Source of the DNA: Clostridia bacterium
Lineage (GTDB): Bacteria; Bacillota; Clostridia; TANB77; CAG-508
NCBI GenBank assembly: GCA_046964515.1
Contig: JBKUYM010000009.1
Coordinates: 21,339 to 85,338, forward strand
Length of the DNA stretch: 64,000 bases
Direction: 5' to 3'
The position numbers and the translations under genes were made by a program. The notes beneath the pieces were generated by a model. That model was given only the letters and a program-made list of their open reading frames with translations. It was not told the origin of the DNA and did not search any database. Positions 1-61,395 of this stretch are shown here, one piece after another. Position 1 is the stretch's first letter; each line of letters starts with the position of its first letter.

Positions 1-1
1 A

Positions 2-145
2 AACGTAGAGTTTACAACTTTAGTAATCAATGCAGAAGGAAATTTCCCTTATGATATGTTTAATAGATTAATCGTAATACCAGCATATTACGAAGGCAAA
101 TATTACAAAATAGTGTTAGATGTTGCAAAAGCATTGGAAGATTAG
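2..145 (+). CDS. hypothetical protein, 3' fragment (gene starts left of window)
   Basis: Open frame from the window edge to TAG 143-145. Tail IPAYYEGKYYKIVLDVAKALED resembles IPIYYKNNYYLLILDVEKVLEL at the end of 682..1110, suggesting a paralog. Confidence 0.6.
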   Translation, partial: NVEFTTLVINAEGNFPYDMFNRLIVIPAYYEGKYYKIVLDVAKALED

Positions 146-230
146 TCATTGTTCCTAATCCCAAGTGTAACAGCTTGGGATTAGTATAGAGTGACTACTC
201 TACAATAAATAATAAAGGATGTGTGATGAT
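146..230 (+). promoter_or_regulatory. structured intergenic cassette, copy 1
   Basis: Box A tCATTGTTcc 146-155. Hairpin 1 is 157-165/174-182. GTATAGAGT at 184-192 opens hairpin 2, TAGAGT..ACTCTA. SD AAAGGATGTGTGA follows. Confidence 0.75.
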
Positions 231-596
231 ATGCGTTATGTACAAAATCTAAGAGTGGCAGAGGACAACATATGTTTTATCTATGACGGTGAAGAAATAA
301 AAATAGTTGATGTAGAAGCTAAAAAGGAATTAAATTTAGACTACGAAGCTACAAAGGAATTCTTTAGAGATATTCCATTCAATCAATCTTTAGATGTTAC
401 AGATTATGGTGTTTGCCCAAAACTTGATACAAGCATAAAAGCTACTTATGATGACCAATGGCATGAAATAGAGTTACAGGTTTTATCAGATGATGACAAA
501 TATTTAGTAACATTATATGTCGGTTGTTACAATGTATTAGTAGATTTAGACGGATTTAAGAACGCTACATTTTTAAATAGTGAAATAGTGATGTAA
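231..596 (+). CDS. hypothetical small protein
   Basis: ORF track gives 219..596. ATG 231 is better spaced from SD AAAGGA at 215-220. TAA stop. Confidence 0.7.
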   Translation: MRYVQNLRVAEDNICFIYDGEEIKIVDVEAKKELNLDYEATKEFFRDIPFNQSLDVTDYGVCPKLDTSIKATYDDQWHEIELQVLSDDDKYLVTLYVGCYNVLVDLDGFKNATFLNSEIVM

Positions 597-681
597 TCAT
601 TGTTCCAGCTCCCAAACCAAAAGGTTTGGGAGTTGTATAGAGTGATTACACTCTAATAAAATAATAAAGGATGTGTGATGT
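597..681 (+). promoter_or_regulatory. structured intergenic cassette, copy 2
   Basis: tCATTGTTcc 597-606. Hairpin 1 is 609-618/623-632 (10 bp). GTATAGAGT 635-643. Hairpin 2 TAGAGTG-atta-CACTCTA 638-655. SD follows. Confidence 0.75.
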
Positions 682-1110
682 ATGAATAAGGTAGTAAGAA
701 CATTAGAAGAAATGGTAAAGGTAGATGACTGTTACAGTAGATTTACTACAGAATATGACATGGAATTTACAACAAAACATTTCAGACTAAAAAAATTAAT
801 ACCTGGAGGTGAAATGGAAACAGTAAATGACTTAGGATTTGCATGTGTAATACTATGCAATGGCGAAACATATTACGAATTTGAAACTTGTTACCATGAA
901 TCAGAGGAAACAGGGGAATTACTACTTGACGAAGTAATACTTTATCAAGGTGAGGAATACCCATTATTTGATACTCCAACAAACACTATAAATACAGTAG
1001 ATATACCAATATATTACAAAAATAACTACTATCTACTAATATTAGATGTGGAAAAGGTATTAGAACTCGATAAACACCTTGTAATGCATAAACCAAATAA
1101 GAATATTTAA
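682..1110 (+). CDS. hypothetical protein, paralog of the left-edge gene
   Basis: 142-aa ORF with SD 7-8 nt upstream. Its C-terminal motif is shared with 2..145. Confidence 0.75.
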   Translation: MNKVVRTLEEMVKVDDCYSRFTTEYDMEFTTKHFRLKKLIPGGEMETVNDLGFACVILCNGETYYEFETCYHESEETGELLLDEVILYQGEEYPLFDTPTNTINTVDIPIYYKNNYYLLILDVEKVLELDKHLVMHKPNKNI

Positions 1111-1194
1111 TCATTGTTCCAGCTTCTAAGCGTTACGCTTGGGAGTTGTGTAGAACGATTAAAGTTCTAATAAAATATAAAGGTGTGTGATGAT
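1111..1194 (+). promoter_or_regulatory. structured intergenic cassette, copy 3
   Basis: tCATTGTTcc 1111-1120. Hairpin 1 is 1123-1132/1136-1145 with two U-G pairs. Hairpin 2 is TAGAAC..GTTCTA 1151-1169, a compensatory change relative to TAGAGT..ACTCTA. Confidence 0.75.
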
Positions 1195-1548
1195 ATGTAT
1201 AAAATAGCAAATTTTACTAAGGTGAATGAAACTAGAACAGTTAGTGACGTAACAAGAGTTCAACGTAACGGAGATGTAATAGACAAATTCCTAAGTTGGG
1301 ACACAGATGCTTACAGTACTGCAAACCAATGGACTTATAAAGACATGCTTTTTAGTTACAATACTTTAATAGCAGTAATTGGCGAAGGTAAAGACTTATA
1401 TGTAACAAGTACAAAATATTCAACAACAACAAGCAAGTTACAAGGTCAAATGAAACGCCAAGCTGAACTGGACGCATTTAACATTCATGTCATAGACCAA
1501 AAAGAATTAGAAGAAATGGTCGAAACTAGATTTCAACCTATAGTTTAG
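1195..1548 (+). CDS. hypothetical protein
   Basis: ORF track gives 1183..1548 (GTG). ATG 1195 is better placed after SD AAAGGTG. TAG stop. Confidence 0.7.
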   Translation: MYKIANFTKVNETRTVSDVTRVQRNGDVIDKFLSWDTDAYSTANQWTYKDMLFSYNTLIAVIGEGKDLYVTSTKYSTTTSKLQGQMKRQAELDAFNIHVIDQKELEEMVETRFQPIV

Positions 1549-1647
1549 CATTGTTAAGGTATCTGTTACATGTTACACTTGTAACAGGTATCTACTAGAG
1601 TGCTAAACTCTACTAAAAATAATAATAAGAAAAGGTGTGTGAAATTT
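1549..1647 (+). promoter_or_regulatory. structured intergenic cassette, copy 4
   Basis: CATTGTT 1549-1555. 14-bp hairpin 1 at 1557-1570/1580-1593. Hairpin 2 TAGAGT..ACTCTA 1596-1612. SD AAAAGGTGTGTGA. Confidence 0.7.
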
Positions 1648-2415
1648 ATGAAATTCTCAAAAGTAACTACTAGAAAACAAATGATTAAGGTGATAACTGA
1701 TATTGCCCCACTTCTTAGCAAAGAAGGTGAAGACATAGCAAATTACTGGTTAGATGCTTTAGAAGGCAAAGAAATGCAAGTAAAAGAAATCAAAACAGGA
1801 TTTAAAGCTGATTTAAAAGTGGAAAACTTCAAATCTGAAGACTCATTCAATAAAGCATTGGAAATGCTAGAAATAATGCCAAAAGAAGAAGCTAAAGTGG
1901 AAGATGACACTAAAACTGAAACAAAAGGCAATGACAAGAAACAAAAACCTAGTCAAAAGGAACAAAATGAAAACATTAAATTAGTAGGCTACAGATACAC
2001 TAGACCAATGTTCCCCGAAGTGTTACACGATTTAGAAGGGTATATACTTACTAGGGTAGACTCTACAGACATATTTGAAATTGAGGATATAGGTGAAGAA
2101 AACCTAGTTATAGCCGTATTCTTCCCAGAATGGGAAAACGTAACATATGTTGACCCAATGGAAGTTTGTGATGATGACTATAAAAAACTATTAAAAATGC
2201 ATGGTTTAGATAGCTTCCCTAATAGACTTGATTTACAACAGGTAATACATTTTGACTCAAAATTACGTTTAATGGTATCACTTAGTTTCTATACTGAAAT
2301 ACCTTACTGTGTATCACTTAAGAAAAAATGGTTTGCAGTCAATGATGTGTTACATTGCAGAGTAAACAACTATGGTCATGATTATGCAATTTATAAAGCT
2401 GAGAAAATCAAATAG
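1648..2415 (+). CDS. hypothetical protein
   Basis: ORF track gives 1600..2415, but the first 16 codons translate the cassette. ATG 1648 follows the SD. Lys/Glu-rich middle, no recognised domain. Confidence 0.7.
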   Translation: MKFSKVTTRKQMIKVITDIAPLLSKEGEDIANYWLDALEGKEMQVKEIKTGFKADLKVENFKSEDSFNKALEMLEIMPKEEAKVEDDTKTETKGNDKKQKPSQKEQNENIKLVGYRYTRPMFPEVLHDLEGYILTRVDSTDIFEIEDIGEENLVIAVFFPEWENVTYVDPMEVCDDDYKKLLKMHGLDSFPNRLDLQQVIHFDSKLRLMVSLSFYTEIPYCVSLKKKWFAVNDVLHCRVNNYGHDYAIYKAEKIK

Positions 2416-2515
2416 GCACTACATGTAACATTGTTACAGCTCCCAAGTCTTATGACTTGGGGGTTGTATAGAGTGTTACAACTCTAAAATATGCGAAAAA
2501 GGTGTGTGATGAAAC
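2416..2515 (+). promoter_or_regulatory. structured intergenic cassette, copy 5
   Basis: CATTGTT 2428-2434. Hairpin 1 is 2440-2449/2454-2463. GTATAGAGT 2466-2474. Hairpin 2 at 2469-2486. SD AAAAGGTGTGTGA. Confidence 0.75.
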
Positions 2516-2854
2516 ATGAAACAAACATTCTTAAATGGAAAAATAATTTGTGAAGAAGTTAAAGACATAGGACATTTATCTTATTACAACGTAACAACTG
2601 AATTAGGAACTGATGAAATATCAGTTTGGCATGACAGCGATAATTTAGAAGAAAAAGCTAAAGGAGTATACAAACATCAGTTATGGGTTGAAATACTAGA
2701 TACTATCTGTTCAGCAGATGACTTTGGTAACAGACCATGTGATTGGGGTTGTCCTTGTGACAGATGCATGTATGATTGGGAAGCTAATCATAGATATGCA
2801 ACAGTTTTAAAGAATGAAGGCTTAGATTATAGCTTCTATGCAAAATATTTATAA
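2516..2854 (+). CDS. hypothetical Cys-rich small protein
   Basis: 112-aa ORF after the SD. Contains CSADDFGNRPCDWGCPCDRC, a possible metal-binding cluster. Confidence 0.7.
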   Translation: MKQTFLNGKIICEEVKDIGHLSYYNVTTELGTDEISVWHDSDNLEEKAKGVYKHQLWVEILDTICSADDFGNRPCDWGCPCDRCMYDWEANHRYATVLKNEGLDYSFYAKYL

Positions 2855-2869
2855 AGGAGAGTGTGTTAT

Positions 2870-3298
2870 ATGTTTAAAATAATTACAAATGGTGTTGAAC
2901 CTACATTAGCAGATATGGAAGAAGTGATAAAAAGTGTTATGTGTACTTATAACATGAATTTATTCCAACAAACGGATGTTATCTTCGTAGGAAGTAATAA
3001 AGACAGACATGTAGAAGTAAGTAAAACAACAGAAGCTGAAGGTTTAATTGTAACAAAAACATATACAGGCAAGAACTGTTTAACTGAAAACTTGGACGTG
3101 AGATATTACTCAAATGGCGATTATATTCACCAAGAAAAAATCACAAATGACCCAAGTTGGGTAGTTGAAACAAAACGCCAATGGTATCCACATGGTAATG
3201 TATCAAAAACTGTGACAGTATATGTTAATCCTAATACAATAGACTTGGTCGATTTTACAGCTTACTTTATGACACTACTAGAAGAACGTTATAAATAA
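2870..3298 (+). CDS. hypothetical protein
   Basis: ORF track gives 2861..3298. ATG 2870 follows SD AAAGGAGAG. This is the only gene in the array with no cassette upstream. Confidence 0.7.
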   Translation: MFKIITNGVEPTLADMEEVIKSVMCTYNMNLFQQTDVIFVGSNKDRHVEVSKTTEAEGLIVTKTYTGKNCLTENLDVRYYSNGDYIHQEKITNDPSWVVETKRQWYPHGNVSKTVTVYVNPNTIDLVDFTAYFMTLLEERYK

Positions 3299-3391
3299 GT
3301 GAGTTATAGGTTGTTCCTATCATCAAGCGTCATGCTTGGTGATAGTGTAGAGTTTATAACTCTAAAAAATAATTATGTGAGGTGTGAGAGT
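3299..3391 (+). promoter_or_regulatory. structured intergenic cassette, copy 6
   Basis: GGTTGTTCC 3309-3317. 12-bp hairpin 1 at 3317-3328/3334-3345. GTGTAGAGT 3345-3353. Hairpin 2 TAGAGTT-tat-AACTCTA 3348-3364. SD GTGAGGTGTGAGA. Confidence 0.7.
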
Positions 3392-3703
3392 ATGAATATG
3401 ACACAAACAATATGCGAAGTGAGAGGAATATTAAGAAAGGAAGACGTATTATTCCGTTACGTAAACAATTTACCAGCTAATAACAGTTACCAAATAATTA
3501 TAGAAACTGGCATTACACAAAATATCTTAATACACAAGGTAGACAATGAAATAGAAATGTTACTAACTGTGACATTTGGCAATGTAATATTAGCAAGACG
3601 TGTAAAAGACGTAGAAAATTGGCGTAATGTAATGAAAGAGTTATATAGTTTTATTCATCAAACATGGGATGCAGATGACTACCAAAGAATTGAGGTGATA
3701 TAA
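3392..3703 (+). CDS. hypothetical protein
   Basis: ORF track gives 3299..3703, but its N-terminus translates the cassette. ATG 3392 follows the SD. Confidence 0.7.
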   Translation: MNMTQTICEVRGILRKEDVLFRYVNNLPANNSYQIIIETGITQNILIHKVDNEIEMLLTVTFGNVILARRVKDVENWRNVMKELYSFIHQTWDADDYQRIEVI

Positions 3704-3835
3704 ATGACTTTCGCTTCAATAGTGATACTGGCTGTTATATATTGTTTCCTTCAAGATGACAAGGAAACGGAAGTGGTAAGACGTAAAGATAAGCCACTTG
3801 ATACAACAACTTGGGAAATAAAACGTAATAAATAA
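3704..3835 (+). CDS. small membrane protein (43 aa)
   Basis: TAAATG junction with the upstream stop. Hydrophobic MTFASIVILAVIYCFL followed by a charged tail. Below the ORF-track length cutoff. Confidence 0.45.
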   Translation: MTFASIVILAVIYCFLQDDKETEVVRRKDKPLDTTTWEIKRNK

Positions 3836-3840
3836 TAAAG

Positions 3841-3871
3841 AGAGGGCGTTACAGAAATGTAGCGCTCTTTT
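3841..3871 (+). terminator. intrinsic terminator (moderate)
   Basis: Stem GCGTTAC/GTAGCGC (3846-3852/3859-3865) with a 6-nt loop, followed by TCTTTT. Confidence 0.5.
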
Positions 3872-3891
3872 AAAAGAAAAGGGGTAATGAA

Positions 3892-4209
3892 ATGTTAGTA
3901 TTAAACAATATAATGAGTATGGAAAATAAAAGAAAATTTGATGTGTTAGGTTTTGTACAAAAGAAAATAAACATAGTATTTGCCGTTAAAATAAGAGAAG
4001 TCGGCTTTAGAAAATTCGTAACAGACGGAGAAGCTAAAGAAATTGGACGTAACAAAGAATGGATTTTCGTACATGTAAAGAAAGGAACATTCGTAAGAAT
4101 ATTAGAAAAGGGCAAGGAAGGAGAAAAGAAAAAAATCACTTATATAGTGACACCAAAAGTTAATCCTTCTGCGGTTAAGATGTGTGTACAGACTCTAGCC
4201 GAATTTTAA
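3892..4209 (+). CDS. hypothetical basic protein
   Basis: 105-aa ORF with SD AAAGGGG upstream. Last gene of the left array. Confidence 0.65.
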   Translation: MLVLNNIMSMENKRKFDVLGFVQKKINIVFAVKIREVGFRKFVTDGEAKEIGRNKEWIFVHVKKGTFVRILEKGKEGEKKKITYIVTPKVNPSAVKMCVQTLAEF

Positions 4210-4239
4210 AAGCGTGTGTGAACGTATTCAGTTAGGAAG

Positions 4240-4263
4240 ACGGGCTATATGCCCGTTTTTTTG
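4240..4263 (+). terminator. strong intrinsic terminator
   Basis: ACGGGC-tatat-GCCCGT followed by seven T residues. Confidence 0.85.
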
Positions 4264-4264
4264 T

Positions 4265-4490
4265 GCCTATAATTCGCCAATATATGACGGGTTATAACAG
4301 GGTGGATATAAGCCAGGGTATGGGAGGTTATAAAAAAGAAAAATAATAAAAGCCTTATATAAAGCCTTCTATATAACGGGTTATATAAAGCCCTGTATAT
4401 AGCGCCTATATAATGCATTATATAGAATGTAATATATTGTAACGCTTATATACAATGTAATATATAGTGTATATATGCAATATAATATTA
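4265..4490. repeat. degenerate ~12-13 bp tandem array (G/C word + TATA core)
   Basis: About 17 consecutive units, e.g. AGCCTTATATAA, AGCCTTCTATATAA, CGGGTTATATAA, AGCCCTGTATAT, AGCGCCTATATAAT, GCATTATATAGA. No ORF. Confidence 0.8.
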
Positions 4491-4740
4491 TGTATTATTA
4501 TAATATGTACACTATGTATAATGTAATATAATGTAATACTATTATACTGTGTTATGTATACATAATATAATTATGTAATAGTATGTAATGTAATAAATAA
4601 TAATTTATATTATTGTATACATAATAATGTTTTATGTATGTAATGTTTTTATTTTTATTATTACATTATGTATACAATGATACAATGTAACATACCATGT
4701 ACGCCCTGTACAATATAAATATATTGTATTTATTTGTATA
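4490..4740. repeat. C-poor AT-rich core with reiterated ATGTAAT and GTATAC motifs
   Basis: ATGTAAT or its complement occurs about 10 times. Palindrome GTATAC at 4556, 4615 and 4670 sits in similar contexts (TGTATACATAAT twice, TGTATACAATGA the third time). No ORF. Confidence 0.75.
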
Positions 4741-4826
4741 ATAAATACCCTGTGTAATATACCCCCGTATTAACCACCCTACCTTTAAAACCCTCCATAT
4801 TACAATTTTTTCGTGATGCTAGTCAT

Positions 4827-4941
4827 GGAACTTGGAACATTTTTTTGAAGGTAATGTGGTGTAACACTTGAACTTGGGACAAATTTAACAGGTAATATGG
4901 ATATACCCCATTGCATGAACTTGGGACATATAGGGTAATGT
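4827..4941. repeat. three iteron-like direct repeats
   Basis: GGAACTTGGAACA 4827-4839, TGAACTTGGGACA 4869-4881 and TGAACTTGGGACA 4916-4928. Each is followed 6-11 nt later by GGTAATRT. Spacing is 42 and 47 bp. Confidence 0.75.
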
Positions 4942-5034
4942 AACGGACAAGACGTAACGCTAAAATAAGGTTGGCGTTTTGAAACAATTCCCTGGATATG
5001 TGGCATATAAATAACGTTAAAGCGTTATGTCATG

Positions 5035-5107
5035 CAATGTGAATTTAATGTGAAGAAAATAGGGTAAAATCGAACACAATGTGAATTTAATGTGAATTTT
5101 ATCGAAC
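5035..5107. repeat. perfect 20-bp direct repeat x2, upstream of a promoter
   Basis: CAATGTGAATTTAATGTGAA at 5035-5054 and 5077-5096. Each contains AATGTGAA twice and is followed by ATCGAAC. Ends about 26 bp before the -35 at 5133. Confidence 0.85.
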
Positions 5108-5132
5108 GGTAAATGAAACTTTCTTCATCTAC

Positions 5133-5161
5133 TTGACAAGAAACTAAAGGTCACATAAAAT
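5133..5161 (+). promoter_or_regulatory. sigma-A/sigma-70-type promoter
   Basis: TTGACA 5133-5138, 17-nt spacer, TAAAAT 5156-5161. Near-identical to the promoter at 51553. Confidence 0.7.
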
Positions 5162-5167
5162 ATTATT

Positions 5168-5378
5168 AACATGATAATGTTAAGAATGTTTTATAAAAGT
5201 AACACGTACATCCTTGAAAAAGGATGACGTTAGTACTCTAGATTGAAAATCAGAGTACGGTAGTTAAGTATAACTAGGTAATTCCTTAAAAGTTTATATA
5301 AAGAATTGTATGTTTTAGTCCAAATAGGTAACAGAATGTAGGGAACTGGTAATCCCCTTGTACTGTTACCTATTTTTT
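5168..5378 (+). ncRNA. candidate ~210-nt non-coding RNA (orphan transcription unit)
   Basis: Lies between the promoter at 5133-5161 and the terminator at 5322-5378. No SD-preceded ORF. Hairpins at 5165-5182, 5204-5231, 5234-5258 and 5280-5307. Confidence 0.45.
5322..5378 (+). terminator. strong intrinsic terminator
   Basis: 13-bp stem AAATAGGTAACAG/CTGTTACCTATTT (5322-5334/5363-5375) with an inner AGGG/CCCT helix, then a T-run. Confidence 0.8.
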
Positions 5379-5386
5379 GTTACAAT
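5378..5386 (+). promoter_or_regulatory. extended -10 promoter element
   Basis: TGtTACAAT directly after the terminator T-run, about 40 nt upstream of ATG 5425. Confidence 0.5.
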
Positions 5387-5424
5387 TTAAATGAATAGTT
5401 CAGATAACGAGAGGGGTGTAATAA

Positions 5425-5685
5425 ATGAAATTACCATTTAGTGTAATAAAGAATGACATACATAAGGGTTATAAATATTTAGATTATGGTGAAATAACAT
5501 ATAAAGGCTATAACGTTCATACTATTTTAGATAGAGAGGAAGTTTTATACTACATTACAGACGAAGGCAGACAGGTTACAGTACACTTTGAACGTAATTA
5601 CTTTCTTAGATTAAAGTATGGTACATTAGCTAATATTGTTATGACACATATATATTATAATATGGTAGATAAATTGGAGGACTAA
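5425..5685 (+). CDS. hypothetical protein
   Basis: 86-aa ORF with SD GAGAGGGG upstream. Confidence 0.7.
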   Translation: MKLPFSVIKNDIHKGYKYLDYGEITYKGYNVHTILDREEVLYYITDEGRQVTVHFERNYFLRLKYGTLANIVMTHIYYNMVDKLED

Positions 5686-10391: not shown

Positions 10392-13300
10392 ATGAAATGG
10401 TTATATGACGATTATATAAGAGATACATGGAATAAGAAATATCGTAATGTTGTTCAAGTGGATGAAAACACATTTAATAGTGAAACATTGTATAACTGGT
10501 TTAGGAGAGTATGCAATGGTGATGAAGAACTTATAAAACGCATGGAAGATATGAAATTCCTATTTGGTGGAAGAATACTTGCAAATAGAGGATTAGTAAC
10601 AAAAGACCATAAAGTTACATTAAGTAACTGTTACGTGTTACCACCTGTGGAAGATAACATTGAAAGTATATTTGGGACAGCAAAAGATTTAGCTACTATT
10701 TTTAGCAGAGGTGGAGGTGTTGGAATAGACATTTCTAAATTACGTTATAAAGGCGCACCTGTACGTAATAGCGCTGAAACAACAACTGGAGCAGTTAGCT
10801 TCATGCAATTATATGACATAACAACAGCAATAATCGGGCAAAAAGGTAGACGTGGTGCATTAATAATAGCAATGGATGCTGAACATCCCGATGTTGAAGA
10901 TTTTATCGACATTAAAAAGGATTTAAACTTAATAACAAATGCGAACATAAGTGTTAAGGTATCAGATAGATTTATGCGTTATGCTGTAGAACATCCAGGT
11001 GAAAGTTATACTATAATATGTAAACTTATAGACGAAGAAACAAAAAAAACATGGCATGAACATGTTACAACTGTAACACCTAGTAAAATATTAGAACACA
11101 TAGCAGAGAATAACTGGAAAATGGCAGAACCAGGAGTTCTATTTTGGGATAGAATGAAAAACTACAACTTTATAGAAAATAATCCATATATAAATATAAC
11201 AGGAGTTAACCCATGTGTAACAGGTGATACCCTAATATTAACAGATGAAGGTTATGTTCCAATTAAAGATAGAGTAGGATTACCTACTAATGTATGGAAT
11301 GGTCATGAATATTCTATAGTAATTCCTAAACGTACAGGGAAAAATCAAGACATATTACGTGTTACATTGTCTGACGGAAGCGTTTTAAATGTTACTCCTT
11401 ATCATAAATTTATACTAAAAGATTTAGGTAGAGTTGAAGCAAAAGACTTAGAAATTGGGAGTAAGCTAGAAAAATGTGAATATCCCGTAATAGAAGGGTA
11501 TGACATTCCTTCTTTAGACATGTACACTCAAGGGTTCTTTAGTGGTGACGGATATATTTCTAAATCTGAAGGCAGAAATGATAGACAACTTATAAAATTA
11601 TATGACGTTAAAAATAAATTAATATCTAGACTAGATGTTACACTTTATGGTGAACTAAAAGAGGATAAAAATATAGTTAGACTTAATCAAGAGTACGAGG
11701 ATAAAACTTTTGTACCACCTGTAAACTATACAAAAGAAGCTAGACTTGAATGGTTAGCTGGATTAATAGATAGTGACGGAAGTTATGAAAAAGAAGCTGG
11801 AATACAAATAACATCAATAAATAAGAATTTCTTATTACAAGTGAAATTAATGCTTAATACTCTAGGTGTTCATTCTTCTGTTACACTAAGTAAGGAAGCG
11901 TGTACAAAAGAAATGCCAGGAGGGACTTATGAATGTAGAGAATGTTATAGACTTCTTATAAGTAAGTATTATGTTTATCGCCTTTATCGTTTAGGTTTAA
12001 CTTTATACAGAGTTCAAATAGAGGATAAAGAACCTAATCGTAACGCTGGAAGATTTGTGCAAGTAATAGATATAACAAAAGTTGGAAAAGCAGATGAAGT
12101 GTTCTGTTTTAATGAACATAAAAATCATAGTGGGATATTTAATGGTGTGTACACTGCTAATTGTGGTGAGCTTCCATTACCCGATTATGGTAGTTGTAAC
12201 TTAGGTAATATAAATTTAAGTGCATATGTTAAAAATCCATTTACGGATATAGCAGAATTTGATTTTGTAGCCTTAACACAGGACATTCCTATTTACGTGA
12301 ATGCCTTAAATGATGTTTTAATTGAAGGTAAAGAATACCACCCATTACGTAAGCAACGTGATGCAATACGTGATTACAGACAGATAGGACTTGGTGTAAC
12401 AGGATTAGCTGACATGCTTATAAAAATGAAAATGTTATATGGAAGTAAAGAAGCGTGTCAATTAGTAAGTGAAATATACAGGGTAATAATAAATCAATCT
12501 GTAATAGCAAGTGTGGATTACGCAGTAGATAGGGATTGCTTGAGTTATAAAGGATTTAATGTAGAAGACTTTTGTAATTGTACTTTTGCACAAAAAGTGT
12601 TAGACAAAGAAACAAAGGAATATGTAAAAGCTAAAGGTAAAGTATTTAATAGTCAGTTTTTAACTATTCCACCTACAGGTAGTGTTTCAATTATATTAGG
12701 TAATTGTTCTAGTGGCGTTGAACCTAATTTTGACTGGAGATATAATAGAAAAATAGAAACAATATATGACGAACCTAGAAAGGTACTTGTTACAGCTGGG
12801 ATAGTAAAAGAGTACGCAGAATATTTAGGTATGTCTGTAGATAAGGTGTTAGAAGTAGGATTACCCGATTATTTTGTAACAGCAACAAATGGTGTAACAT
12901 ACATGCAAAGAGTGGCAATGCAAAGTGCTTGTCAAGATTATATTGACGGAGCAATAAGTGGAACAGTAAATTTACCTAACGATGCGACAGTGGAAGATAT
13001 AGTAGACCTTTATAAAGAAGCATGGTTGCAAGGATTAAAAGGTATTACAGTATACAGAGTTGGTAGTGAACGTGAGGGTATACTTACAGAAGTAACACCT
13101 GTTACGTTGGATGAAACAAAAGTAGAACCTGTAATAATTCCACAGGGTGAAAAACTTAAAACACTAGAGTTACAACGTGGTGAGAAAAAAGCAATAGCAC
13201 CCGACACCATTTACTATAAAGAAGAAGTAAAAATAGGGTGTGGTGAATTAAACCTATTCATAGGATATTCTCCAAGTGAAAAAGCATTACAAGACTTTTG

Positions 13301-13685
13301 GGTGAAACGTAAAGGTAATGGAGGTTGTGAACGTAATATTGAAAGTACAGTCATTTCTATGTCACTGTTACAACGTGTTGGAGGAAGTTTTGAAATGTTA
13401 GAAGAATCATTTAAAGGCATAGGAAGTTGCAATAGTTTTGTACATGCAAGAAGTAAAGGGGCAAAATTAAGTAAAGGTTCAAACTGTGGTCAAGCAATAT
13501 TCAATACTTTATACGATTTTGTGAAACGCATGGAAAAGAATGAAGGTAGATATGTACTTAATGCAGAAGGTAATCCTAATTTACCTGTAGTGATTAATAA
13601 TCCTTGTCCTTCTTGTGGTAAACCATTACACAGACAAGGTGGTTGTTACACATGTGATGAATGTGGTTATCAACGTTGTGATTAG
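10392..13685 (+). CDS. ribonucleotide reductase catalytic subunit, probably class II (NrdJ-like), intein-containing
   Basis: Motifs LSNCYV, GGGVGIDISKLR and PPTGSVS. Catalytic NPCGE is restored when 11214-12161 is removed. Cys-rich tail CPSCG..CYTCDEC. No beta-subunit gene in the window. Confidence 0.85.
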   Translation: MKWLYDDYIRDTWNKKYRNVVQVDENTFNSETLYNWFRRVCNGDEELIKRMEDMKFLFGGRILANRGLVTKDHKVTLSNCYVLPPVEDNIESIFGTAKDLATIFSRGGGVGIDISKLRYKGAPVRNSAETTTGAVSFMQLYDITTAIIGQKGRRGALIIAMDAEHPDVEDFIDIKKDLNLITNANISVKVSDRFMRYAVEHPGESYTIICKLIDEETKKTWHEHVTTVTPSKILEHIAENNWKMAEPGVLFWDRMKNYNFIENNPYINITGVNPCVTGDTLILTDEGYVPIKDRVGLPTNVWNGHEYSIVIPKRTGKNQDILRVTLSDGSVLNVTPYHKFILKDLGRVEAKDLEIGSKLEKCEYPVIEGYDIPSLDMYTQGFFSGDGYISKSEGRNDRQLIKLYDVKNKLISRLDVTLYGELKEDKNIVRLNQEYEDKTFVPPVNYTKEARLEWLAGLIDSDGSYEKEAGIQITSINKNFLLQVKLMLNTLGVHSSVTLSKEACTKEMPGGTYECRECYRLLISKYYVYRLYRLGLTLYRVQIEDKEPNRNAGRFVQVIDITKVGKADEVFCFNEHKNHSGIFNGVYTANCGELPLPDYGSCNLGNINLSAYVKNPFTDIAEFDFVALTQDIPIYVNALNDVLIEGKEYHPLRKQRDAIRDYRQIGLGVTGLADMLIKMKMLYGSKEACQLVSEIYRVIINQSVIASVDYAVDRDCLSYKGFNVEDFCNCTFAQKVLDKETKEYVKAKGKVFNSQFLTIPPTGSVSIILGNCSSGVEPNFDWRYNRKIETIYDEPRKVLVTAGIVKEYAEYLGMSVDKVLEVGLPDYFVTATNGVTYMQRVAMQSACQDYIDGAISGTVNLPNDATVEDIVDLYKEAWLQGLKGITVYRVGSEREGILTEVTPVTLDETKVEPVIIPQGEKLKTLELQRGEKKAIAPDTIYYKEEVKIGCGELNLFIGYSPSEKALQDFWVKRKGNGGCERNIESTVISMSLLQRVGGSFEMLEESFKGIGSCNSFVHARSKGAKLSKGSNCGQAIFNTLYDFVKRMEKNEGRYVLNAEGNPNLPVVINNPCPSCGKPLHRQGGCYTCDECGYQRCD
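11214..12161 (+). mobile_element. intein (316 aa) with LAGLIDADG homing-endonuclease domain
   Basis: Starts CVTGDTLIL. Block B is TPYHKF. LAGLIDADG motifs are GFFSGDGYI and LAGLIDSDGS. Ends GVYTAN, followed by the +1 Cys of CGELPLP. Confidence 0.85.
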
Positions 13686-19082: not shown

Positions 19083-19094
19083 ATGATATAATGA

Positions 19095-19127
19095 GGGTAT
19101 AGAGTATTACACTTTATACCCCTTTTT
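19095..19127 (+). terminator. intrinsic terminator
   Basis: 11-bp stem GGGTATAGAGT/ACTTTATACCC followed by CTTTTT. Confidence 0.75.
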
Positions 19128-19154
19128 ATGGTATAGAGTAGAAAGGAGAAAACA

Positions 19155-61008: not shown

Positions 61009-61395
61009 ATGAGAAAATTAAGTACTATTCAAAAAAGAGAAAAATTAAATGATGTATATGCGGCAGATGAAATAGGTGCAGGAGAGGCAAATCATAGATA
61101 TATAATTTGCAAAGAAGGTGAAACTTGTTGGTGTGATGGAAGTAATTTTATAGGTGTTGTAGCTGAGATACTTTTACAACATGGAGTAAGAAAAGATAAG
61201 AACTCACAACATGGAGTAATAGATAGTGATTTATTAGAAATAGTAAGAGATAGAATGAAAGCTTTTCAAGCTGGACAATTTGCCAGTGAATATAATGAAA
61301 AAGCATTAGAACATATAGAATTAGCTTTAATGTATCTTAATCGTAGAGTTGAAGATAGAATAGAAAGAAATGTTTTAGGAAAAAACGAGAAATAA
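61009..61395 (+). CDS. hypothetical protein
   Basis: 128-aa ORF with SD AAGGAGG. Conserved-looking GAGEANHRY..LLQHG..FQAGQF pattern; no family assigned. Confidence 0.65.
   Translation: MRKLSTIQKREKLNDVYAADEIGAGEANHRYIICKEGETCWCDGSNFIGVVAEILLQHGVRKDKNSQHGVIDSDLLEIVRDRMKAFQAGQFASEYNEKALEHIELALMYLNRRVEDRIERNVLGKNEK

Follow-up and report, generated by a model that had tools for sequence, protein, structure and literature searches.

We uncovered a structured RNA element of about 70 nucleotides (nt), hereafter the module, that fills six stop-to-start gaps between small phage genes in a 64-kb stretch of DNA (64,000 nt of contig JBKUYM010000009.1 from a Clostridia bacterium assembly; "the window" below denotes this whole stretch). 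The data strongly support the module being a real, new sense-strand RNA motif with two alternative folds. In fold A, it forms two successive hairpins, hairpin 1 (H1) and hairpin 2 (H2); in fold B, H1 is enclosed, across an internal loop (GUU/UAG), by an outer helix, P-alt, in which the flank of the upstream stop codon and a CAUU pair with an AGUG and the "variable loop" of H2. P-alt and H2 are mutually exclusive, the AGUG being the hub whose partner is either the upstream CAUU or the downstream CACU.

Conserved pairing on the sense strand

A preliminary description of this DNA, made without database searches, had placed two-hairpin modules at 146-230, 597-681, 1111-1194, 1549-1647, 2416-2515 and 3299-3391, and all six were confirmed. 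R1, a covariance model of the two-hairpin structure of the six copies, recovers exactly these sites in the window, on the + strand only (E = 6e-9 to 5e-20); apart from these and two weak matches (E 0.8-0.9), nothing in the window reaches E <= 1. R2, a second model representing fold B, recovers the same six sites and nothing else (E = 2e-9 to 2e-19). Orthologous module sites are present in ten related contigs according to R1, and the covariation seen in the six copies was upheld once more homologues were aligned.

Over 37 distinct sequences, 11 of the 12 pairs of H1 change on both sides, with 93.9% of the cells paired, as against 32-46% in slid controls of the whole two-hairpin structure; the divergent relatives L259 and L262-L264 add new H1 stems, bringing the tally to 13/13 covarying pairs. 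The H1 stem of module 4 is unrelated in sequence to those of the other copies, and the H1 loops, of at least 4 nt, reach 14-19 nt in some copies. The pairing of H1 is thus kept with differing sequence, as first described, the stems being longer than originally listed in several copies. H2, in contrast to these drifting stems, is near-invariant in sequence, UAGAGU(G)/(C)ACUCUA, with a spacer of 3-7 nt and one double compensatory event, TAGAAC/GTTCTA, which had been singled out in copy 3 and is indeed real, recurring in its orthologues. Across 60 distinct sequences, 166 cells hold a G.U pair and 10 an A.C or C.A combination; this excess shows that it is the sense strand that folds and agrees with the earlier remark that the U-G pairs are specific to + strand RNA. 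Hence, the initial picture of a structured + strand element, whose stems drift while their pairing is kept, stands.

Of the conserved boxes, box A (CATTGTT) holds in five copies, copy 6 having GGTTGTT in its place, and box B (GT(A/G)TAGAGT) reads CTACTAGAGT in copy 4. Directly downstream of H1 comes GURUAGAG, and downstream of H2 an A-rich stretch. Exact GTRTAGAGT sequences in the window lie on the + strand in 10 out of 10 cases. Two readings of the hairpins were rejected. An intrinsic (Rho-independent) terminator would call for a U-tract directly after H1 or H2, and none is present; as had been noted, an A-rich stretch lies downstream instead. A DNA operator for a dimeric protein at TAGAGTG/CACTCTA is ruled out by the 3-7 nt variation of the spacer.

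Two mutually exclusive folds

P-alt was missed in the two-hairpin description and emerged upon folding each module with its stop codon included. The original architecture of two independent hairpins therefore needs revising: H2 competes with the outer helix, which includes the upstream stop codon. Fold B comprises P-alt (7-12 bp), an internal loop of roughly 4 x 5 nt and H1 (9-15 bp), for a total of about 20-26 bp. A cross-matrix of duplex energies shows the best partner of every flank to be the H2 segment of its own module (-8.7 to -12.8 kcal/mol); with segments of unrelated module types, the values are about -1 to -7. In P-alt, 7/10 pairs change on both sides, 94.6% of the cells being paired, and orthologous modules compensate within it, as in AGUUAUA/UAUAACU versus AGUUUUA/UAAAACU. 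Moreover, in the relative L259 the module that follows a g2-like gene retains GATTAG, the last codon plus stop of g0, indicating that the 5' strand of P-alt travels with the module.

The pooled alignment of 104 matches contains 68 distinct sequences, over which 95.8% of the fold-B pair cells are paired, compared with 37-45% in slid controls, and 20 of the 23 fold-B pairs change on both sides. Extra pair types number 62, against 50 +/- 2.5 in shuffles, a value that 0 of 500 shuffles reach. With the flank left free, fold B is the minimum free energy (MFE) structure, by 4-7 kcal/mol, in seven of eight module types of the clade, as it is in seven of eight out-of-clade modules (14/16 module types folded overall); when the flank is blocked, H1 plus H2 forms instead. 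The loop bases G15 U16 U17 / U65 A66 G67 are invariant in 60/60 distinct clade sequences, and GUU/UAG is present in most out-of-clade modules too. The loop sequence does not fit a K-turn or a loop-E motif. Pairing of box A with the Shine-Dalgarno (SD) block was likewise discarded: it is weak, copies 4 and 6 do not conserve it, and module-free junctions have the GUGUG block as well.

In most copies the module starts with the stop codon of the upstream open reading frame (ORF), and in the window about 10-20 nt separate its end from the SD of the ORF that follows (Table 1). GTTAC/GTAAC recurs in the loops and stems of the module hairpins (e.g., 1566-1585 and 2476-2480) and is also dense in upstream noncoding regions (L001 7050-7430; the locus L001 includes DNA 5' of the window).

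Table 1. Modules and other mapped features of the small-gene array (window coordinates; free energies in kcal/mol; R2 scores in bits; aa, amino acids)
Feature	Flanking genes	Span	Strand	Stop and start codons	P-alt (5' strand/3' strand)	Internal loop	H1	H2	SD	R2 score	Fold B vs fold A
Module 1	g0 (partial 129-aa-family gene) / g1 (121-aa)	143-233	+	TAG 143-145, ATG 231	143-150/190-197 (UAGUCAUU/AGUGACUA)	151-154/185-189	155-166/173-184	187-192/197-202	AAAGGA 214-219	74.4, E 5e-16	-30.4 (MFE) vs -23.4
Module 2	g1 / g2 (142-aa)	592-684	+	TAA 594-596, ATG 682	592-601/641-650, 10 bp (UGUAAUCAUU/AGUGAUUACA)		606-618/623-635, 13 bp, one G.U	638-644/649-655	666-671	87.1	-35.6 vs -30.6
Module 3	g2 / g3 (117-aa)	1100-1197	+	TAA 1108-1110, ATG 1195	1100-1112/1157-1168, one bulge		1120-1131/1137-1148, three G.U	1151-1156/1164-1169 (TAGAAC/GTTCTA)		68.7	
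Module 4	g3 / g4 (255-aa)	1542-1650	+	TAG 1546-1548, ATG 1648	1542-1552/1599-1609, 11 bp (AGUUUAGCAUU/AGUGCUAAACU)		1557-1570/1580-1593	1596-1601/1607-1612		62.6	-31.6 vs -24.2
Module 5	g4 / g5 (112-aa)	2413-2518	+	TAG 2413-2415 (8 nt 5' of P-alt), ATG 2516	2424-2432/2472-2480 (UGUAACAUU/AGUGUUACA)		2437-2449/2454-2466	2469-2474/2481-2486		86.6	-36.0 vs -30.6
Junction without module	g5 (112-aa) / g6 (142-aa)	2855-2869	+	ATG 2870					only AAGGAGAGTGTGTTAT before the ATG		
Module 6	g6 / g7 (103-aa)	3296-3394	+	TAA 3296-3298, ATG 3392	3301-3312/3351-3362, uses H2 loop and H2 3' arm (GAGUUAUAGGUU/AGAGUUUAUAACUC)		3317-3328/3334-3345	3348-3354/3358-3364		49.1, E 2e-9	-28.1 vs -22.6
Intrinsic-terminator-like hairpin closing the array (ACGGGC tatat GCCCGT then TTTTTTT, read from the sequence)		4240-4262	+								

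The phage and its small-gene array

The window, with a G+C content of 32%, comes from a phage genome of about 86 kb, and its long ORFs lie almost all on the + strand. These code for a myovirus-type tail sheath and baseplate, an SPP1-type portal, TerL, an intein-bearing ribonucleotide reductase, a ligase, a DnaB-type helicase and a primase. Public metagenomes contain numerous near-identical contigs, 84-87 kb in length. The closest isolate is Bacillus phage BCD7 (TerL about 50% identical at the amino acid level), the relatives of the endolysin are distant ones from Bacillota phages, with no genome matches, and the host is probably Gram-positive. A megablast search of positions 1-4500 against GenBank phages gave no match, and a search for DUF4417 neighbors returned close relatives only, together with two short distant contigs lacking modules.

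The small-gene array occupies positions 1-4209, with every gene on the + strand, and a noncoding region of about 1.2 kb lies on either side of it. Paralogy among its genes is limited to one pair with 29% identity. The Pfam scan of the array proteins gave no match, and PHROGs and Pfam together almost nothing, the orthologs of g3 in related contigs having a precomputed DUF8033 match. Contrary to the preliminary description, the six gaps are not strictly consecutive: the junction at 2855-2869 has an SD and no covariance-model match with either R1 or R2, so that modules are not obligatory at every junction. The array's first gene, which lies shortly before the window begins (L001 9075-9464), likewise has no module, although it has the same SD block. 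Immediately 5' of this gene, L001 8930-9030 holds a hairpin of about 27 bp (MFE -43.8 kcal/mol, z = -4.8), near which a simple scan detected no strong sigma-70-like promoter. A simple terminator scan, which did not list the hairpin and T-run that close the array, reported no + strand terminator-like site in 1-5600.

Spread of the module to other phages

The module has no counterpart in Rfam 15: at the gathering score there was no match in the window or L001, and at E <= 5 there were only chance-level matches to small nucleolar RNAs and microRNAs, none of them the family of the module. R2 likewise had no match in L266, a 20-kb locus that overlaps the last 13 kb of the window and extends about 7 kb beyond it, or in Bacillus phage BCD7. 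Among seven folded BCD7 gaps of about 80 nt, five look like ordinary terminators or are unstructured, and the remaining two (L251 6577-6680 and 6981-7087) have hairpins without a clear U-tract.

The search for further homologs was, however, productive among viral contigs. An invariant-based pattern search followed by model confirmation revealed the module in six other viral contig groups. For the contig parts compared, there is no protein similarity between these groups and the window phage, and the only link among the out-of-clade loci is one distant protein match, between L290 and the weak candidate L288. Their modules bring new P-alt and H1 sequences while the invariants are kept. In L268 and L272 the module lies 3' of an ORF, with the stop codon within P-alt; L269 has two copies in intergenic gaps, one of the two being 3' of an ORF; the 140-kb contig L287 has two copies 3' of consecutive small ORFs; and L281, L285 and L290 have one common module sequence. 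L271, where the module is in a 5' leader, is considered below. As for the patterns themselves, GTATAGAGT N3-8 ACTCTAA yielded mostly chance single matches in viral and genome collections, and about half of the matches to a relaxed invariant pattern were chance ones rejected by the model. The single genome-contig match (L267, a metagenome-assembled genome of Eubacteriales) was not confirmed by R2.

A stop-like triplet (UAA, UAG or UGA) stands 0-1 nt 5' of CAUUGUU in most modules (window, L269, L290) and, in copy 6, 2 nt 5' of GUUGUU. It is kept where the real stop codon is further upstream (TAA in copy 5, TAG in copy 6, TAA in L269, TGA in L290), the L271 module being an exception to the rule. 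From this pattern, the module may carry its own stop codon. In the relative L264, the junctions at 2383-2485 and 2859-2964 are occupied by modules of a different sequence, without CAUUGUU or UAGAGUG, the latter folding, much as in fold B, into an outer-plus-inner hairpin that starts directly 3' of the stop codon. Their sequences suggest that both allow an H2-like alternative hairpin.

Recombination between modules

Relatives of the window phage gain or lose whole gene cassettes, leaving a single chimeric module at each junction. In L003, the chimera corresponds to module 1 up to GTGTGATG and to module 2 thereafter, with the crossover in the SD block; in L004, the switch from module 1 to module 2 lies within H2; and in L259, the cassettes come in a different order. 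The crossover points differ between relatives, in keeping with homologous rather than site-specific recombination. The chimeras show that the modules also act as recombination linkers through which gene cassettes are added or removed. A further arrangement is seen in L069, where two tandem modules (2845-3006) have no gene between them, the first ending in ...ATAAAG just before the SD, as if one ORF had been precisely deleted.

Possible functions of the module

The module lies between cistrons of a same-strand array, and our scans detected neither a + strand terminator-like site in 1-5600 nor a promoter-like site within the modules. We favor, with about even confidence, an interpretation in which it serves as punctuation of the RNase III type, marking sites of processing and protecting the resulting ends, and at the same time as a recombination linker. 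Processing by RNase III had been among the first suggestions for this element, and it becomes more plausible with the corrected fold, which forms about two helical turns broken by a conserved internal loop. A typical substrate of RNase III covers about two turns of helix, and internal loops confine cleavage to one phosphodiester, leaving behind a 3' hairpin with a protective role (PMC1540722). In T7 substrates containing a "bubble", as in SP82 substrates containing internal loops, the enzyme cuts the downstream side alone (PMC1935012). By analogy, we infer that host RNase III, or another structure-specific endonuclease, would cut the 3' side of the loop in fold B. The upstream mRNA would then end in H1, protecting its 3' end, and the new 5' end of the downstream RNA (UAGAGUG) would refold into H2 (UAGAGUG...CACUCUA), shielding that end just 5' of the A-rich spacer and a strong SD. 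In this manner, one early transcript could be converted into several individually stable mRNAs. A cut on the 3' side of the loop would explain why there are two competing helices, where the loop lies and how the module is placed. Termination of a ribosome at the stop codon would open P-alt and thereby favor fold A. The stabilizing effect that we propose has precedents in that ribosome binding at a strong SD stabilizes Bacillus subtilis mRNAs, SP82 RNA included (PMC7509114), and the titles of papers that PMC3997798 cites point to a stabilizing role for a 5' stem-loop.

Several points weigh against this interpretation. The phage is uncultivated, and H1 is variable in length (9-15 bp). In B. subtilis, most of the mapped RNase III sites consist of paired cuts within long-range duplexes (PMC11780869). 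The L271 module, in a locus with a G+C content of 44.5%, is situated in a 5' leader about 110 nt after TTGACA-17-TATACT, with no preceding ORF. Covariance-model alignments lean towards the structure that is modeled, a bias that does not affect the unconstrained MFE folds or the cross-duplex matrix. Finally, the invariance of GUU/UAG and of the H2 stem across phage contigs without detectable common proteins in the parts compared exceeds the known needs of RNase III and hints at a sequence-specific partner.

This last point is at the heart of an alternative that we regard as possible though unlikely, namely that the module is a site for a sequence-specific RNA-binding protein, of the host or the phage, which would act on the invariant loop or the H2 stem to set downstream translation or decay, the competition between P-alt and H2 serving as a switch that reports translation of the upstream ORF. 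Such a protein would fit the complete retention of GUU/UAG (60 sequences) and the near-constancy of UAGAGU(G)/(C)ACUCUA amid freely varying neighboring helices, the recurrence of the motif in phage contigs without common proteins in the parts compared, and the presence in most modules of the stop codon within P-alt, which a terminating ribosome must therefore open. It is harder to reconcile with the SD and start codon being left free by both folds, with the lack of a candidate RNA-binding protein common to the loci compared, and with the other L264 junction modules, which occupy the same position without the invariant loop. Even so, the invariance of the loop bases across contigs with no detectable protein similarity in the parts compared favors some sequence-specific recognition, in line with the regulator binding originally entertained, and the opening of P-alt by a terminating ribosome leaves room for a translation-sensing role. 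The conserved unpaired bases of a structured sense-strand element, and the leader position of the L271 module about 110 nt after a consensus promoter, could also bring to mind a cis-acting processive antitermination RNA that makes RNA polymerase termination-resistant through the array. We consider this very improbable: known put and nut sites occur once per operon, whereas here there are six copies in one operon, each placed exactly from stop codon to SD, the scan of 1-5600 gave no + strand terminator-like site to overcome, and Rfam gave no match.

The cassette differences with single chimeric modules in L003 and L004, the reordering in L259 and the tandem modules of L069 resemble the behavior of the PeSL cassettes of T4-type phages (PMC2839356), and could be taken to mean that the module is a DNA-level recombination site, PeSL-like or attC-like, that shuffles cassettes, its RNA folds being incidental. 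This strikes us as very improbable, given that the varying crossover points fit homologous and not site-specific recombination, that the 166:10 ratio of G.U to A.C and the single orientation show selection on the sense strand, and that compensatory changes preserve the helices at the expense of sequence identity, on which homologous recombination depends; further, Pfam scans of the ORFs, with about 5 kb of the genome outside them, found no recombinase. Least probable of all, in our view, is a promoter before every gene, be it of the hairpin type first suggested, a two-box phage-sigma type or a terminator-promoter unit without a U-tract. The two conserved boxes 5' of each gene, a small phage protein with a weak Sigma70_r2 match and the combination of promoter and stem-loop in T4-type PeSLs (PMC2839356) speak for it. 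Yet no sigma-70-like site (at least 9/12 matches) was found by the scan inside any module, the box-to-box distance (TTGTT to TAGAG) is variable, at about 33-53 nt in the module sequences read, the G.U pairs are strand-specific, in copy 3 the putative -10-like TAGAGT has changed to TAGAAC in concert with its pairing partner, the array's first gene has the same SD block without a module, and no phage RNA polymerase was found in the ORFs scanned; the hairpin promoter is thus not upheld.

Returning to RNase III-type punctuation, if that model holds, the module would be a compact, transplantable RNA part that, in phages of Gram-positive bacteria, cuts operon transcripts at set points, protects both new ends and allows unrelated small genes to be swapped by recombination. 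The motif offers a testable handle on accessory-gene expression in uncultivated gut-type phages and is a candidate tool for operon design in Bacillota. More tentatively, and with low confidence, one may conceive of a horizontally spread new class of phage RNA: a portable "gene junction" that would carry its own stop codon and SD, act as a two-state switch read by the terminating ribosome, and have its GUU/UAG loop and UAGAGUG hub recognized by a conserved sequence-specific factor beyond generic dsRNA recognition, thereby coupling the translation of one cistron to the processing, stability or expression of the next.

Other features of the phage genome

Downstream of the array, window positions 4263-5420 form a noncoding region of about 1.2 kb with dense short AT-rich repeats (TATATA and GTAATATA units, 4300-4750) and, at 5133-5161, a near-consensus promoter, TTGACA-17-TAAAAT, followed by a leader with the hairpin CATCCTTGAAAAAGGATG. 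From its sequence, the region could be a replication origin, a promoter cluster or a genome-end region. A leader motif, GTGTACCTTGAAAA(N)TT(N)A..TAGTGT, is common to the noncoding region 5' of the array (L001 8385-8415) and the module-bearing leader of L271, where it lies on the - strand about 60 nt after its promoter. CCTTGAAAA also occurs at 5212, about 50 nt after the window promoter; we presume a likeness between it and boxA of Firmicutes rRNA operons. Just 5' of the TerL gene (window 19085-19145), GTATAGAGT occurs twice: one instance is the 5' arm of a terminator-like hairpin, GGGTATAGAGT...ACTTTATACCC then TTTTT, and the other directly precedes the SD.

Three large proteins are interrupted by LAGLIDADG inteins, namely the ribonucleotide reductase, the family A DNA polymerase and one of about 1145 aa (window 10392-13685, L266 10513-13797 and L001 1435-4872), with intein-less versions (699 aa) in some relatives. 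The segment L001 1-1442, 5' of the window, codes for QueC plus radical SAM, GTP cyclohydrolase I and flavodoxin-like reductase proteins, of the 7-deazaguanine/queuosine-precursor type, a gene set which suggests that the phage DNA is modified; a link between the UGU of box A and tRNA-guanine transglycosylase is speculative. The 128-aa product of window 61009-61395 has a precomputed Pfam match to Acb2_Tad1_hairpin (the anti-CBASS/anti-Thoeris sponge fold), and its gene adjoins one for a Bac_DNA_binding (HU-like) protein. Beyond the window end, by about 8.9 kb, L266 18882-19406 encodes a 174-aa protein that may be a phage-encoded sigma factor, going by the weak Sigma70_r2 match mentioned above.

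Comparison with known systems

Several known systems share individual traits with the module. The N4-type hairpin promoter has a stem of 5-7 bp and a 3-nt loop, unlike H1 with its 9-15 bp and loop of at least 4 nt; moreover, Pfam scans of the window phage ORFs detected no RNA polymerase family. The REP and Correia/NEMIS elements are also repeated intergenic hairpins co-transcribed with flanking genes; some such palindromic repeats stabilize the upstream mRNA, and Correia elements are RNase III substrates. REP and Correia elements are, however, chromosomal, the latter being like miniature inverted-repeat transposable elements and found in both orientations, whereas the modules are phage-borne, in a single orientation and placed exactly from stop codon to SD. 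The integron attC site likewise lies at the 3' end of each promoterless cassette in one orientation, keeps its structure while its sequence drifts, and folds in single-stranded form into an outer helix, an unpaired spacer and an inner helix. It differs in that attC folds as the bottom strand and the modules as the sense strand, in that the alignments, as we read them, have no RYYYAAC/GTTRRRY core at the helix ends, in that Pfam scans of the ORFs (about 5 kb of the genome lying outside them) found no integrase, and in that the module junctions vary in position, as in homologous recombination.

The PeSL cassettes of T4-type phages are similar in organization: intergenic and about 100 nt long, they too have an SD at their end and small ORFan genes beside them, and recombination between neighboring copies deletes or inserts genes, with one chimera remaining (PMC2839356; here L003, L004 and L259). 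PeSLs, however, have a strong sigma-70 promoter and a terminator, as against modules without a promoter-like site or U-tract, in which the conserved feature is sense-strand RNA pairing. The early RNase III signals of T7 (R0.3-R1.3, e.g., R1.1) are similarly intercistronic in a same-strand array and consist of hairpins of about two helical turns with an internal loop (PMC1540722, PMC1935012); the likeness is one of shape, and Rfam gave no match. The outer helix of the module includes the stop codon, the host of the phage is probably Gram-positive, and the module has a built-in alternative hairpin, H2, as a possible cap for the downstream 5' end. The sites for Bs-RNase III in SP82 early mRNA (Panganiban and Whiteley 1983 and Mitra and Bechhofer 1994, as cited in PMC4838370) are, by description only, the counterpart in a Gram-positive phage: RNA stems with internal loops that are cut once, downstream (PMC1935012), the downstream RNA being stabilized by a strong ribosome-binding site (Hue et al. 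1995, as cited in PMC7509114). Unlike these, the module is two-state and common to several groups of phage contigs without detectable protein similarity in the parts compared.

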